A stretch of DNA of 64,000 nt from Methanocaldococcus sp. 28A (GTDB lineage Archaea; AGJL01; Methanococci; Methanococcales; Methanocaldococcaceae), in assembly GCA_049852185.1 (NCBI GenBank), contig CP187540.1; one strand, 5' to 3'. The position numbers were made by a program, and so were the translations under genes. Shown one piece after another: positions 1,295 through 40,849 of this stretch. The notes below the pieces were generated by a model. It saw only the letters and a program-made list of their open reading frames with translations, was not told the DNA's origin and made no database searches. Numbering within the stretch: the first letter of the stretch is position 1; every line of letters starts with the position of its first letter.

Positions 1295-1608
1295 TATTCA
1301 CCACCTTCCTTCTTCTCTACAAGCTCCATAATGTTTGAAAGCCCTTCATCTAAAATCAAAAGAGCAGCAACTGGGAAAGGTTTCCCACAAACCGCTCCCA
1401 GTTCCAATGATGTAATTTTGTGTTGGTAAACTGGGATGTTTGATAATTTAGCGTAGTACTTAACATCTTCTTCTAAATCCTTTGGAATGTTTCCTGCCAT
1501 TACTACCAACTTACCTTCTCCGTGTTTAACGAATTTTATTGTTCTTTTTGAACCTAAAATTACTTTACCTGTATCTACTGCAGTCCTAATAGCTTTATTC
1601 ACATCCAT
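1294..1608 (-). CDS. rpl30e: 50S ribosomal protein L30e
   Basis: [23 protein letters not shown]; likely start MDVNK at 1608 behind AGGAGG (ORF track extends to 1626). Confidence 0.96.
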
Positions 1609-2108: not shown

Positions 2109-4667
2109 TTACTCTTTCTCATTTTTACCTTCCTCATACTCCCTATCTATTATTAATTCAACACATCCAGTTCCAAGATATATTGGTTTTCCAACAATAA
2201 CATTTTCTATAACTCCTTTTAATTTATCAATATCCCCTCTCTCTGCAGCAGCATATAAATGCTTAACAGTTTCTTCGAAAGCTGCTCTTGCTAAGACAGA
2301 ACCTTTCTCTCCAGCAACCCCATGCCTACCTATTGGCTTAACTTCTCCATCAGCAGTCATCATATCCGCTACTAACATCAAATGCCTTATATCAACTTCT
2401 AACCCCTGTTGTTCTAAAGTATTTCTCATCTCATTAATTATAGCGTTTCTTGCCGCTTCAATACCCAAAACTTCCTGTATTTCAATAATGTTATTTGTTG
2501 TAGTTCTTGTTGTGTCAACTCCTTCAATCTTAAATACTTCCCTTAAGTTTGAACCCTGAGTATATAAAACGTATTCATCCCCTTCTTTTTTAACCAAAAC
2601 CCTTTCAATTCCTGGAATTCCTTTTAACTGGATATTTTTAATTTTTGGAATTCTCTTTCTAAGAGCCTTTATTGATGGTGTCTTTATTTTTAAATACAAT
2701 ACACTTCCTTCAACATCAATCTTTACCTTTAATTTTTTCTTAATTGCCTCAACAACATCATCTATTGTTAATCCTCTATCAGCTAATCTATTTTCATCTA
2801 ACTCAACTTTTATAGATTGAGTCCATAAATCAATACTAATACTCTCAGCTATACTTCCCAAGGTTAAGCTTTCTATCTCTTTTGCTATCTCTTCAGCTTT
2901 TTCTCTGTTATCTTTATATCCTTCTTTCAAATAGATAGTCATGATAGGTGTTGAAGGCTCTTTTCTTGCATCTACTATTTCAATCATCCTTGGTAAACCT
3001 AAGGTAACGTTAATCTCCGCAACCCCTGCATAGTGGAATGTTCTCATAGTGTTGTGGGTTAAAACCCCATCAAATGTCGTAAATGTTTCTAACCCCTCAA
3101 CACTTATATCATAAACATATTCTTTATCATAATTTATCTCTTCAATTTCTACAATTTCATCCCAAACTATATCGCTTTCAACTGCCTTTTTCAATAACCA
3201 ATACTCTTCTAATGTTAGAACATTTATTCCTTTCTTAACTGCTAATTCTTCTATTCTTCTTAAGTGTCTTTGTAATGTAGCTCTTCTTATTTTTTGCTTT
3301 CTTTCATATTTCTTTAAAATTATCTTTGGATAATTAATTTTTTCTCCTAACTTAGTTAATGCATCTCCAATTGAAGGTATTATGTCAAATGAGTCGTAAG
3401 TTTTATTATCGTTTATATTATTTATAAGCTTATCTAATTCAACTTTTTTCTTTTCAACTGAGAAGTTAATTTCTTCATAGAATATCTTTATCTGTGTTTG
3501 TGGAATTATTAATGCGTATTGCTCTTTTATTTTTGTTTTTATAGTAAAAATATTGAATCTTGCCAACAATAAAGCTATTCCATCAATTAACTCTTTTGAA
3601 TTTGAGCTAATAGTTATAATTTTTCTCTTTGCATTTACCTTTCCATTTCCATCAAAGTATCCTCTAAGCAATCCTCTAACGAACTCTTTATTTGCTCCAA
3701 ATACAAACTCAGCAACTTTTTTTGTTTTTGATGATAGTCCAAAGTTTGATAAGAATTCAGTCAAAGTTGATGAATAAATCTTTATATCATAATTATCTGA
3801 AAATCCATTATTATTCCTGTATTCTTTATATTTTAAGCCAAACTTATCTAAAAATGTCCTAATTTTATTTAAAACATTTTCGTCAACATTTGAGATTGAA
3901 ACAAAGTCTTTAGTTAATGAACCTTCTGCCAAATAAATTCCAATGAAATATCCAAAGTCATAATCTAACTTTATGTTGTTTGGAATTGATGTTTTGTTTT
4001 TGTTAATCTCAGTTATTGTATTGCTAACAACATAATCAGAGATATTTATTGCCTCAACACAGTTTGCTGGAATATGCTTTACTACTGGAATTCTATCCCC
4101 TATTTTTAAGTCTGAACCTTTAACTGGAATTATTTTATTATCTTTTCTTATAACAAATGAATGGTAAGGGGTAGCTGTAATCTCTCTACCAGATTTTGTT
4201 TTTATTTTAATCAATTTTCCATTGTGTTTATGTCTAATACAACTTAGTATTCTCTTCCAATGAACTTTTTCATCTTGGTCTAAGCTTAGAGCATAGATAT
4301 CAATAGGCAAATCACAAACATCACTTTCTCCAACTTTTTCAAATCCATATTTTTCAATCATCTCATCAACTAATTTTCCAATCTCAATAGATTTTATAAA
4401 CTCTCCTTCTTTGATTATAATCTTCTCTTCATAAGGTAGAGACATCTGAGTACCTGGCTCTCCAATAGATTGTGCTGCAACAATTCCAACAGCTTCATAA
4501 GGTTCAACTAAAGCCTTTTCATAAGCTTTAACAACCTCATCAATAATCTCCTCAATCATTTCATCTGTTAAATCTTTCTCCTTAGATAATTTTTCAAATA
4601 ACTCATCCTTTAATGATTGTGGTAAATTCAAACCTTCAATTTTTTGTTTTAATACTTCCATATCCAT
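2109..4667 (-). CDS. rpoA2: RNA polymerase subunit A'' (Rpo1C) with intein
   Basis: AQSIGEPGTQM...TMRTFHYAG extein motifs; ARAAFEET. Confidence 0.97.
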   Translation of the reverse strand: MDMEVLKQKIEGLNLPQSLKDELFEKLSKEKDLTDEMIEEIIDEVVKAYEKALVEPYEAVGIVAAQSIGEPGTQMSLPYEEKIIIKEGEFIKSIEIGKLVDEMIEKYGFEKVGESDVCDLPIDIYALSLDQDEKVHWKRILSCIRHKHNGKLIKIKTKSGREITATPYHSFVIRKDNKIIPVKGSDLKIGDRIPVVKHIPANCVEAINISDYVVSNTITEINKNKTSIPNNIKLDYDFGYFIGIYLAEGSLTKDFVSISNVDENVLNKIRTFLDKFGLKYKEYRNNNGFSDNYDIKIYSSTLTEFLSNFGLSSKTKKVAEFVFGANKEFVRGLLRGYFDGNGKVNAKRKIITISSNSKELIDGIALLLARFNIFTIKTKIKEQYALIIPQTQIKIFYEEINFSVEKKKVELDKLINNINDNKTYDSFDIIPSIGDALTKLGEKINYPKIILKKYERKQKIRRATLQRHLRRIEELAVKKGINVLTLEEYWLLKKAVESDIVWDEIVEIEEINYDKEYVYDISVEGLETFTTFDGVLTHNTMRTFHYAGVAEINVTLGLPRMIEIVDARKEPSTPIMTIYLKEGYKDNREKAEEIAKEIESLTLGSIAESISIDLWTQSIKVELDENRLADRGLTIDDVVEAIKKKLKVKIDVEGSVLYLKIKTPSIKALRKRIPKIKNIQLKGIPGIERVLVKKEGDEYVLYTQGSNLREVFKIEGVDTTRTTTNNIIEIQEVLGIEAARNAIINEMRNTLEQQGLEVDIRHLMLVADMMTADGEVKPIGRHGVAGEKGSVLARAAFEETVKHLYAAAERGDIDKLKGVIENVIVGKPIYLGTGCVELIIDREYEEGKNEKE
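3051..4442 (-). mobile_element. Intein with LAGLIDADG domain in RpoA'' (464 aa)
   Basis: GTQM|SLPYEE...VLTHN|TMRTF; TPYH block B; GIYLAEG and RGYFDGNG endonuclease blocks. Confidence 0.93.
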
Positions 4668-32260: not shown

Positions 32261-33018
32261 TTTTAATTTTTTAATTAATTTAAGTCCTCTTTTAAAGATG
32301 TTAAAAGAGCCTACTAACTGTCTATTAAAATACTTTTTACAATTAGAGCAATAAACAACCTGCCCTTCTTGAGATCCATTTTACTCCCGCATATAGGACA
32401 GGTTGTTGATGTATAATGTGGATTTACATAAAAAACGATACTCTTATACTCTAACTGTCTAACTATTCTCTTCCAATCTGTTCTATCTAATTCTCTATGA
32501 AATTTCGAATTTTTATCGTACATATTGAATTTATTTAGGTCTTCGAAGATAAAAATAGCATTAGGGAATAAACGAGATAATTGAGTAGTTAATTTATTGA
32601 TAAAATCCTTAACTCGATTTTTTCTCCTATTTAGGTATTTTTCTAATAACTTCCCTATTCGTTTAGGAGATTTTTTATAAATAGATTTCAACTTATCAAT
32701 GATAATGTCATAAACCACTTTAATTCTATGGAGTTTGGATAAATCAACTCTAATCCAACCTTCTGTTAGATGATATATATCGAGAGATTTTAGATTGCTA
32801 TCAACTCCGACAATTATTTCTCTATTCGAATGGTCTATAGATTGTTTGAAAGTTAGATAAGCAGATTTCTCCTTCAAAATGATTTCGCCAATCTCCCAAT
32901 CTTTAACCTTATCAAAAAACCATTTATCTTTAATGTTTAAAACTAAATATTCCTTTCTTGGTTTAATAGTAATTTTAATTTCTCCTTTTTCTTTATTATA
33001 CATATTGGACAGACACAC
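32232..33018 (-). pseudogene. tnpB: tnpB (IS605/IS607 OrfB), 5'-truncated and frameshifted
   Basis: RuvC-I VGVDSN, RuvC-II IFEDLN, YTSTTCPICG; frameshift near 32375, then YCSNCKKYFNRQLVGSFNIFKRG in another frame. Confidence 0.88.
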
Positions 33019-39418: not shown

Positions 39419-39870
39419 ATTAAAATAAGACCGATCCGGTATGGAAACATTTGTTAAATAAACACTTATCCTTTTTCCCATCTTACATCACCTCATTAAA
39501 ATAAGACCGATCCGGTATGGAAACGAAATTTGATAATATCGTAAATATAAAATTTTGTTCATTAAAATAAGACCGATCCGGTATGGAAACATTTTTTTAA
39601 AGCTATAAGTAAAAAACCTTATTTTAGTTAGCCAAAATAATTAAAATAAGACCGATCCGGTATGGAAACCTCATTTTTACGCTTATGAATGTCTTGGCAG
39701 GAGCATTATTAAAATAAGACCGATCCGGTATGGAAACATAAACAGCCCATTTAAGACCTCATACTGCTCTTTTATTAAAATAAGACCGATCCGGTATGGA
39801 AACCTCTTTTTTGCCATCTCCATCTCCCTGTCCTCAGACTTATTAAAATAAGACCGGTTCGGTATAAAAT
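39419..39870 (+). CRISPR. CRISPR array, 7 repeats (last degenerate), 6 spacers; no cas genes in window
   Basis: 30-bp repeat ATTAAAATAAGACCGATCCGGTATGGAAAC at 39419, 39495, 39561, 39640, 39708, 39774, degenerate at 39842; spacers 46, 36, 49, 38, 36, 38 bp. Confidence 0.98.
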
Positions 39871-40139
39871 AATTATTATTTCTTTTTCTTTTTTATTAAT
39901 TTGAAAAAATTCTTTAACAAAAAATCTTTTTATTAAAATACAGAGTATTAAAATAATTAAATTTATCTATTTTCTGTTGTATTCCAAAAATATTTCACAC
40001 CTATAAGTAATAAAAAAGATAACATAAATAATAACTTCTATATCTGCTTTACAAGATTCCAGAAGTTTCTCTTAGAGCATAATATTGAACACAATAAAAA
40101 CGTCCGTCAGACATCCTCAAACGTGGCAAGACTTTTGCA

Positions 40140-40344
40140 CTAATTATATTTAACATGGTATGACGGCTCTCCACCCTAAAGGGCGGAGTTTCGTGAGAGC
40201 GAGCCTAAGCTCACCCTCTCCGGCCCCGCCAAAGCCACTACCCCTATCCCATTAGGGATTCGGGGCTACGCTTTAACCATTTCCATGTCCCCAGCGGTGG
40301 AGTTTTCGATAACCCCACCAATTAATAACTTGGACTGGGGACAT
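40140..40344 (-). ncRNA. Putative stand-alone omegaRNA/reRNA-like transcript
   Basis: TATA TTTTATATA at 40367-40375, about 25 bp upstream of a 10-bp stem (40335-40344/40285-40294); GC-rich hairpins; ends at right-end hairpin plus flanking guide. Confidence 0.6.
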
Positions 40345-40492
40345 AAGTTTAGTTTATTAATTCGGGTATATAAAAGTTATGTTTGTCCCACCCACCTCCC
40401 CTATCTCCTTGCTTCGCAAGGAGAGTAATGAAATCTGAAAGATTTCATCTGAATTCATCACCGCCCTAAAGGGCGGTGCTTTCTTAGCGACA
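40160..40492 (-). mobile_element. Non-autonomous IS200/IS605-type element (no ORF)
   Basis: Near-identical subterminal hairpins at 40169-40188 and 40459-40478 (CCGCCC-TTTA-GGGCGG type); TTTAT 5' of left end; right end ...GCCGTCAT. Confidence 0.8.
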
Positions 40493-40849
40493 ATAAATGG
40501 TATAAATAATGCCAAAGGTATCAAAAATTCCTTACAATATTTACTTCTATCTTACCATAGGAAAAGTTGAACGGGTAAATAATGATGTTGAATATCGATT
40601 AGATAGATTTATAGATTGATTGAAATCACTAATGTGACTTCAAAGCTCTCCGCTACGCTTCAATTGGCATAACAAAATAAAACTTCATCGTTATTTAGAT
40701 TATAGGATTCCTTATGATGTTTATTATAGAAAATACATTTAATAATATGGATGTGATTTCATGAATTATTACTTGCGAAATAATTTCAAGATACAACACC
40801 TAAAATGCTTAATTTAAATTAATAAATATATATTTTTATAAGACAATAA

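Follow-up and report, generated by a model that had tools for sequence, protein, structure and literature searches.

A protein-less IS200/IS605 derivative of Methanocaldococcus that retains a covarying hairpin from within tnpB, plausibly a trans-dependent guide-RNA gene

A stretch of 64,000 nucleotides from contig CP187540.1 of the archaeon Methanocaldococcus sp. 28A (GenBank assembly GCA_049852185.1), called the window here, carries a protein-less IS200/IS605 derivative of about 340 bases on its minus strand (approximately 40501-40160). The element consists, in this order, of a left end, a TATA box, a hairpin module, a short linker, an omegaRNA-type scaffold that comes from the tnpB 3' end, and a right end. 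Judged by its sequence relationships, it is a PATE, i.e., a non-autonomous internal-deletion derivative of an IS608-like IS200/IS605 insertion sequence. It is probably mobilised in trans by TnpA, and a promoter-driven RNA comprising module, scaffold and flank would be used in trans by a cognate TnpB against the empty site; a trans-dependent, self-promoted guide-RNA gene is a plausible description of it. The hairpin module is a piece of tnpB which appears to be maintained as RNA structure both within the reading frame and in the protein-less elements.

Results

Derivation from a full-length element

The genome of strain 28A (1.56 Mb in two contigs) contains three full copies of the element and one that is truncated inside the module; they are about 97% identical and have unrelated flanks, as a preliminary description made from the window sequence had anticipated. 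The sole Y1 transposase gene of the genome sits in a 2137-bp element with both tnpA and tnpB (contig C1, 829314-831450; loci L031 and L069), so that the two cognate genes which that description had assumed to act in trans are found in the same genome. The tnpA product is intact (143 amino acids; Y1_Tnp, E 6.8e-41, profile positions 2-121 of 121), and the gene adjoins the cognate tnpB, which encodes 392 amino acids with an OrfB_IS605 and a TNB domain. In contrast to this parent, the small element gave no match when searched for tnpA and tnpB domains (Y1_Tnp, TNB), and the only open reading frames of at least 40 amino acids that overlap it are of 41, 47 and 55 amino acids, as taken from the list of open reading frames without a homolog search. 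A scan of the element against Rfam at the gathering cut-off and at E <= 10 returned chance-level matches only.

BLAST comparison of the small element with the parent gave four matches. The left ends are identical at 55 of 58 nt; the block TAGGGGAGGTGGGTGGG is identical; the module corresponds to tnpB nt 1122-1184 at 76% identity; and the scaffold with the right end agrees with the tnpB 3' end and right end of the parent at 93 of 123 aligned positions (76%), which is the tnpB with a matching right end that had been called for. Because of these four matches, the small element is best described as having arisen from such a parent by two internal deletions, and hence as a PATE. The 5' module, which had been taken for a new acquisition replacing tnpB, is thus a retained internal piece of that gene (codons ~133-157).

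A covarying hairpin within the tnpB reading frame

On the alignments, the module is a covarying structure within the tnpB reading frame that is conserved across three genera. The two-stem hairpin occurs in 18 of 18 tnpB copies examined, three of which have two mismatches in the outer stem (P1). The letters of P1 are wholly different between contexts and the pairing is retained: GCATGGCATCGAG/CTCGATGCCATGC in the tnpB of strain 28A and GCATGGTATCAAG/CTTGATACCATGC in that of genome G036, which belongs to another genus, as against ATGTCCCCAG/CTGGGGACAT, GCCCCCAG/CTGGGGGC and GCTACCAG/CTGGTAGY in protein-less copies. Some of the compensatory changes within tnpB are not synonymous (A to T, E to K and M to V). 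Over 31 sequences (26 distinct), 95.4% of cells were paired, compared with 83.1% in shuffled alignments and 33-45% with slid partners, and 19 of 37 pairs were changed on both sides, a number that none of 500 shuffles reached. When the 20 protein-less copies were taken alone, 96.5% of cells were paired (90.5% shuffled) and the covariation score was 0.219 (0.131 shuffled; 0 of 500 shuffles as high), with 8 of 32 pairs changed on both sides, which 21 of 500 shuffles matched. The internal loop GUCCA.GU is retained in the non-coding copies as well.

Synonymous-codon identity among eight tnpB copies was 0.817 in codons 133-157, i.e., the module, and likewise 0.817 in codons 377-392, which overlap the scaffold, compared with 0.63 upstream of the module (codons 1-132) and 0.58 between the two segments (codons 158-376). 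The constraint is raised in exactly these two segments, and thus the protein-less lineage keeps exactly the two RNA-constrained parts of tnpB. The objection foreseen in the preliminary description, that the module could be ordinary tnpB coding residue, does not hold because the module covaries.

The scaffold has four helices shared by protein-less and tnpB-bearing elements; among 25 sequences, both partners are changed in 16 of the 29 pairs. In characterised TnpB systems, the omegaRNA is this same 3' tnpB and right-end region. For the predicted 207-nt RNA (40346 to 40140), the folding energy is -98.4 kcal/mol, compared with -66.2 +/- 5.1 kcal/mol for shuffled sequences (n = 200; z = -6.3, none of the 200 as good). 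A pseudoknot in which the loop of P5 pairs with the 3' tail (loop/tail GGCGG/CCGUC in one type, GGCAAC/GUUGUC in the other) was considered and rejected, as the element of genome G006 mixes loop and tail types.

In the full-length elements, module and scaffold are separated by about 670 nt, and duplex energies for a closing helix across this gap were equal to those of shuffled sequences in 18 copies. An internal promoter in tnpB, ahead of the module, might be suspected from TATA-like letters, but these are not kept at synonymous sites (six copies). No bulge-helix-bulge motif that could join module and scaffold by splicing was seen on inspection by eye, without a formal test. The relatives found among solved structures align only from residue ~157 and are uninformative on the protein segment that the module encodes.

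Promoter and HgcC-bearing sibling elements

The TATA box TTTATATA has its 3' edge 22 nt before A40344, at which P1 starts. For M. jannaschii, one promoter study gives a consensus of TWTATATA and a spacing of 23 +/- 2 nt in 126 of 134 promoters (PMC2699501). TWTATATA is exact in 7 of the 13 aligned copies of the genus and has one mismatch in the other six, and a comparable box is present in other genera; the promoter noted in the preliminary description is thus a consensus box conserved in related copies. The TATA box of elements that bear the archaeal RNA HgcC (Rfam RF00062) falls in the same alignment column, and by this alignment the promoter-bearing block is part of the left-end region that is common to the HgcC-type siblings.

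The suggestion that the element itself might be one of the high-GC RNAs of M. jannaschii was not borne out for HgcC: the best Rfam HgcC score on it was 23.4 bits against a cut-off of 50, with matches to the end hairpins only, and the best in the genome was 24.8 bits. The element is instead a sibling of HgcC-bearing elements. Eight of the 17 genomes of the genus have HgcC matches above the cut-off that immediately follow, on the 3' side, a left end and TATA block agreeing with those of the element at 76-96%. The HgcC model begins 24 nt after the TATA box of these siblings, and its last 13 nt lie in the variable flank, beyond the end of the element (...GGTCAG). Since the left end and promoter are shared and the model starts and ends at these places, HgcC seems to be the RNA that a sister lineage carries behind the same promoter-bearing left end, and it lends indirect support to transcription of the present element. 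Expression of HgcC is described as verified by northern analysis in PMC4247193, where HgcC1-3 of Thermococcus kodakarensis are also said to arise from internal starts in transposase genes, and a right-end-like tetraloop in HgcC is mentioned by Gomes-Filho et al. 2015 (PMC4615843).

The TATA box also bears on the possibility that module and scaffold do not form a TnpB guide at all. They could matter as single-stranded DNA structures during TnpA transposition, or as a regulator or decoy RNA, the latter either titrating a factor bound to the same hairpin in tnpB mRNA or blocking 5'-3' decay. The module may act alone, given its distance of some 670 nt from the scaffold and the lack of a helix that closes this gap; its G-T pairs would suit DNA (top strand) just as well as RNA; and over-expression of a PATE-derived RNA in Halobacterium affected growth (PMC4615843). 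However, the module has no similarity to the end hairpins that TnpA recognises (BLAST against the parent), a TATA box at promoter distance that is conserved across genera points to an RNA product, and the scaffold corresponds to the region that forms the omegaRNA in characterised TnpB systems (PMC10055086). We consider a role other than that of a guide unlikely.

Two observations on HgcC loci may be added. In relatives, the HgcC loci L049, L054, L064, L044, L128 and L047 are the 3' halves of protein-less elements of ~280 nt, and none above the cut-off occurs in the genome of strain 28A. In genome G011 (contig C25, 1452-2833), a left end (1452-1569, plus strand) and an HgcC (2705-2833, plus strand) lie 1.1 kb apart with an opposite-strand frame with a TNB domain between them, an odd arrangement for an IS605-type element.

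Distribution in relatives

The same architecture and the same deletion junction were found in seven genomes of the genus at 65-72% identity; the genus alignment comprises 13 copies, including two of the six copies in genome G007. A covariance model of the module matches 13 of 40 genomes of the class. Among these, G036 gave 38 module matches, 10 in tnpB genes and 28 elsewhere, and all seven of the latter that were inspected are protein-less elements with the same junction type, whose ends, among them the right end GGTCAG, agree with those of the full-length elements in G036. Three copies from a third genus have the same architecture. Cognate tnpB genes (63-93% amino acid identity) are present in 9 of the 40 genomes at E <= 1e-40, and an intact Y1 tnpA was found only in G000, G007 and G038, that of G016 being broken.

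These data bear on whether the element could be an inert wreck, i.e., a decaying deletion product in which the TATA box and the pieces of tnpB survive by chance, according to where the deletions happened to end. Such a remnant would be expected to show what is seen here: two simple internal deletions, with AG microhomology at one of the junctions; truncation of one copy among the four of strain 28A; and, in genomes that lack a cognate tnpB (e.g., G012 and G002), solitary copies that are partly degraded. However, one lineage with one junction persists in three genera, with seven genomes in that of strain 28A, and the ends of the small elements track those of the resident full-length elements. 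Moreover, the stems covary among the protein-less copies alone, the loop is kept where coding no longer constrains it, the segments retained are exactly the two with raised synonymous constraint, and the TATA spacing is maintained. Simple decay is thus quite unlikely to account for the element.

Layout, borders and target

The features of the element are listed in Table 1. All those named in the preliminary description, i.e., the hairpin ends, the TATA box, the 10-bp stem with its inner arm, the GC-rich scaffold, the GAAA and the terminal GTCAT, are present on the minus strand. The element has a GC content of 0.59-0.60, compared with 0.15-0.30 in the flanks. The left end is kept in every aligned small copy (13 in the genus), and the left-end sequence that precedes the hairpin, after the ...TTTATAC flank, is CATTTATTGTCGCTAAGAAAG (minus strand). 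Beyond the right end, the first T-run lies at ~70 nt (~40090). Public RNA runs were searched for window 40100-40560, and none was listed that contains it.

Table 1. Coordinates of the element and its parts in the window
Feature	Position	Strand	Sequence and remarks
Left junction	40499..40503	-	Flank ...TTTAT-AC, then element from (C)CATTTATTG; presumed target tetranucleotide ATAC
Left end	40459..40498	-	TTGTCGCTAAGAAAG; 95% identical over 58 nt to full-length element
Left-end hairpin	40478-40459	-	CACCGCCC-TTTA-GGGCGGTG; AAAG directly 5' at 40482-40479
Twin mini-hairpin cassette (optional)	40405..40449	-	ATGAAATCT/AGATTTCAT and CTCCTTGC/GCAAGGAG
Archaeal TATA box	40367..40374	-	TTTATATA; conserved block GGGAGGTGGGTGGG upstream
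Predicted transcription start	40342..40344	-	A40344 or G40342, first P1 bases; predicted from promoter geometry
5' hairpin module	40285..40344	-	Homologous to tnpB codons ~133-157; covarying
Module P1	40344-40335 with 40294-40285	-	Perfect 10-bp stem ATGTCCCCAG/CTGGGGACAT
Module P2 (inner arm, 9 bp)	40319-40311 with 40304-40296	-	GGTGGGGTT/AACTCCACC
Module internal loop (15 nt)	within 40285..40344	-	AGUCCAAGUU...; conserved
Linker (15 nt)	40270..40284	-	GGAAATGGTTAAAGC; internal-deletion junction GTTAAAG/CGTAG (slash at the junction), from comparison with full-length element
OmegaRNA-type scaffold	40160..40269	-	GC-rich, four helices; includes right-end hairpin
Right-end hairpin	40188-40169	-	CTCCGCCC-TTTA-GGGTGGAG; GAAA 5' of hairpin at 40192-40189
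Element 3' end (GTCAT)	40164-40160	-	Terminal sequence GCCGTCAT
Right flank	40140..40159	-	ACCATGTTAAATATAATTAG; would-be guide if read through, by omegaRNA analogy

The left border had been placed at 40492. Alignment of the copies (four from strain 28A, 13 from the genus and seven from another genus), together with a paralogous empty site, moves it ~9 nt outwards to 40499-40501, with an uncertainty of about 2 nt, and therefore the TTTAT at 40497-40493, which had been regarded as the target motif, is internal to the element. In the same copies conservation sets in at T(T/C)AC, followed by (C)ATT... or GAT.... The left-flank tetranucleotide is TTAC in three of the four copies of strain 28A and in most copies of the relatives, and ATAC in the window copy; the target motif is thus most likely TTAC rather than TTTAT.

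The element is nested in another repeat of ~0.8 kb (window ~39975-40799) with terminal inverted repeats GTGTTGTATCTTGAAATTATTTCGCA ... TGTGAAATATTTTTGGAATACAACA, of which the genome has at least 11 further copies at 65-81% identity. One paralog of this host repeat (81% identical) lacks the element and reads TTTAC followed directly by ACAATATTAAATAG, compared with TTTAT(AC), element, ACCATGTTAAATAT in the window, where the border is uncertain by 2 nt. As far as these two sequences go, the empty paralog fits insertion without target duplication.

Neighbourhood of the window copy

A CRISPR array at 39419-39871 has six good repeats and a degenerate seventh (39842-39871) at the end that faces the element, and that end is therefore the trailer. 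The distance of ~290 bp given in the preliminary description stands when the degenerate repeat is counted (288 bp), but from the last Rfam-scored repeat it is 356 bp. This proximity had been pointed out, and the element could in principle serve or exploit the neighbouring array. However, among the 10 arrays with this repeat in the genome only one has an element copy nearby, the other three copies being 3.6, 10 and 55 kb away; the window copy lies at the trailer end with predicted convergent transcription and inside a separate repeat with its own terminal inverted repeats. No similarity between the element and the CRISPR repeat, and no consistent association of copies with arrays, was found in this genome. 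Because just one of four copies lies near one of 10 arrays, and at its trailer end, we regard a CRISPR-linked function as highly improbable.

A partial TNB-domain match of a different tnpB family (window 32353-32475, minus strand, 30 bits, in a frame of 240 amino acids) lies 8 kb from the element.

The twin mini-hairpin cassette

The cassette of 45-50 nt (..CGAAATC-loop-GATTTCG.. and a second hairpin) is missing from the full-length element and from 4 of the 13 aligned small copies, and it occupies four different positions in elements of the family: that of the window copy (40405-40449), the tnpB reading frame in genome G014 (L071), where it forms an in-frame insertion of 15 codons, scaffold helix P4 (L041 and L070), and the region before the right hairpin (L085, L092 and L095). 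It is not independently dispersed in the genome of strain 28A, all three occurrences being within copies of the element. It is reminiscent of the palindromic MJRE repeats reported from Methanocaldococcus jannaschii, which have coding potential.

Discussion

The preferred reading of the element as a trans-dependent guide-RNA gene implies four steps. The single TnpA of the genome would mobilise the element in trans through its two hairpin ends. Transcription would start at ~40344, cross the right end and continue in the flank, so that the RNA would be 200-270 nt long, as the promoter geometry and the analogy with HgcC suggest. Guided by this RNA, supplied in trans, the cognate TnpB would act against the empty site (TTAC and flank) and so hold the element in place. 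Finally, the module would form the 5' domain of the guide RNA, either offering a handle to a protein or stabilising the end. A homing role of this kind has been shown for TnpB of the IS605 family (PMC10055086). The earlier comparison of the dispersed copies with a one-spacer system was overstated, for the guide of an omegaRNA matches the empty site of the element itself.

Several points weigh against this reading. The resident tnpB has an internal tandem duplication of 317 bp, which repeats the TNB domain together with the beginning of the scaffold and ends the frame ~20 residues early, and the gene may be inactive. Scaffold helix P5 is GGCU/AGCC in the small element and UGGG/CCCA in the resident full-length element; the change is compensatory, and the fit of the small scaffold to the resident TnpB may be uncertain owing to it. 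With its ATAC flank the window copy may be a poor substrate or target. In G036, the genome with the most copies (~28 protein-less and 10 tnpB copies), no Y1 TnpA was detected although the assembly is 98% complete, and several genomes that carry the small element, e.g., G002 (99% complete), have no cognate tnpB at E <= 1e-20. The G-T tolerance of the module pairing, as mentioned above, fits single-stranded DNA of the top strand as well as RNA, and with a gap of ~670 nt and no closing helix the role of the module in a guide RNA is conjecture.

A stronger version of the same idea may be stated, although we hold it to be doubtful. The working RNA of this TnpB clade could consist of two domains, the mid-frame module and the 3' scaffold, and TnpB could need or profit from the module as a second handle. 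The protein-less lineage would then be a natural fusion of the two, free of the open reading frame and placed behind its own promoter, and HgcC would be the guide-RNA cargo of the sister lineage.

PATEs were reportedly first described by Dyall-Smith in 2011. The present element resembles them in having the hairpin ends of a resident IS200/IS605 element, in being gene-less and multi-copy, and in its presumed dependence on TnpA in trans; it differs in keeping one more structured part of tnpB, from mid-gene, with a consensus TATA box 22 nt before it. According to Meers et al. 2023, PATEs 'often encode omegaRNAs' on which TnpB must act in trans (PMC10055086), and expression of a PATE-derived RNA in Halobacterium is reported by Gomes-Filho et al. 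2015 (PMC4615843). The idea of a mobile guide-RNA gene served in trans, as put forward in the preliminary description, is plausible, but not new, having been stated for PATEs by Meers et al., and omegaRNA-encoding PATEs that are used in trans being known, the element as such is no surprise.

The HgcC elements share with it the left end, the TATA block and a terminal hairpin of the CTCCGCCC type, but their RNA body is unrelated, they lack the module, and they end in GGTCAG rather than CGTCAT. IS608 of Helicobacter pylori is similar in the order of tnpA and tnpB, in the subterminal hairpins, in the TTAC left flank with AAAG 5' of the left hairpin, in the four-base right end (TCAT here) with GAAA 5' of the right hairpin, and possibly in inserting without target duplication; the differences are that the host here is an archaeon and that the window copy has ATAC. 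The corresponding motifs of IS608 are said to be TTAC/AAAG and TCAA/GAAT (Barabas et al. 2008). As in the ISDra2-type TnpB omegaRNA, the scaffold overlaps the tnpB 3' end and the right end and the guide would be the 3' flank, but there is no sequence or Rfam similarity between the two. Moreover, characterised omegaRNAs are contiguous at the tnpB 3' end, whereas here an additional conserved RNA element lies ~670 nt upstream within the frame.

What is new is the presence of this family in the class, the covarying module in the middle of the open reading frame together with its selective retention, and the structural tie to HgcC. In broad literature searches, which were not narrowly aimed and excluded supplements, we found no description of an RNA element in the middle of tnpB; nor did these searches reveal a link between HgcC and TnpB other than that of Gomes-Filho et al. 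2015.

The hidden covarying structure, whose synonymous sites are as constrained as those of the omegaRNA region, suggests that this TnpB clade has a second functional RNA element, and the protein-less lineage, as a natural deletion experiment, makes the role of the module directly testable. To our knowledge, HgcC, an expressed archaeal RNA family of some 20 years' standing, is still listed without a function, and the shared left end and promoter give a working explanation for it as the cargo of a sister lineage. If a second RNA handle of TnpB is real, it would represent a step toward the two-part RNAs of Cas12 systems, and if the module is that handle, it may aid the design of compact guide RNAs for thermostable TnpB editors.

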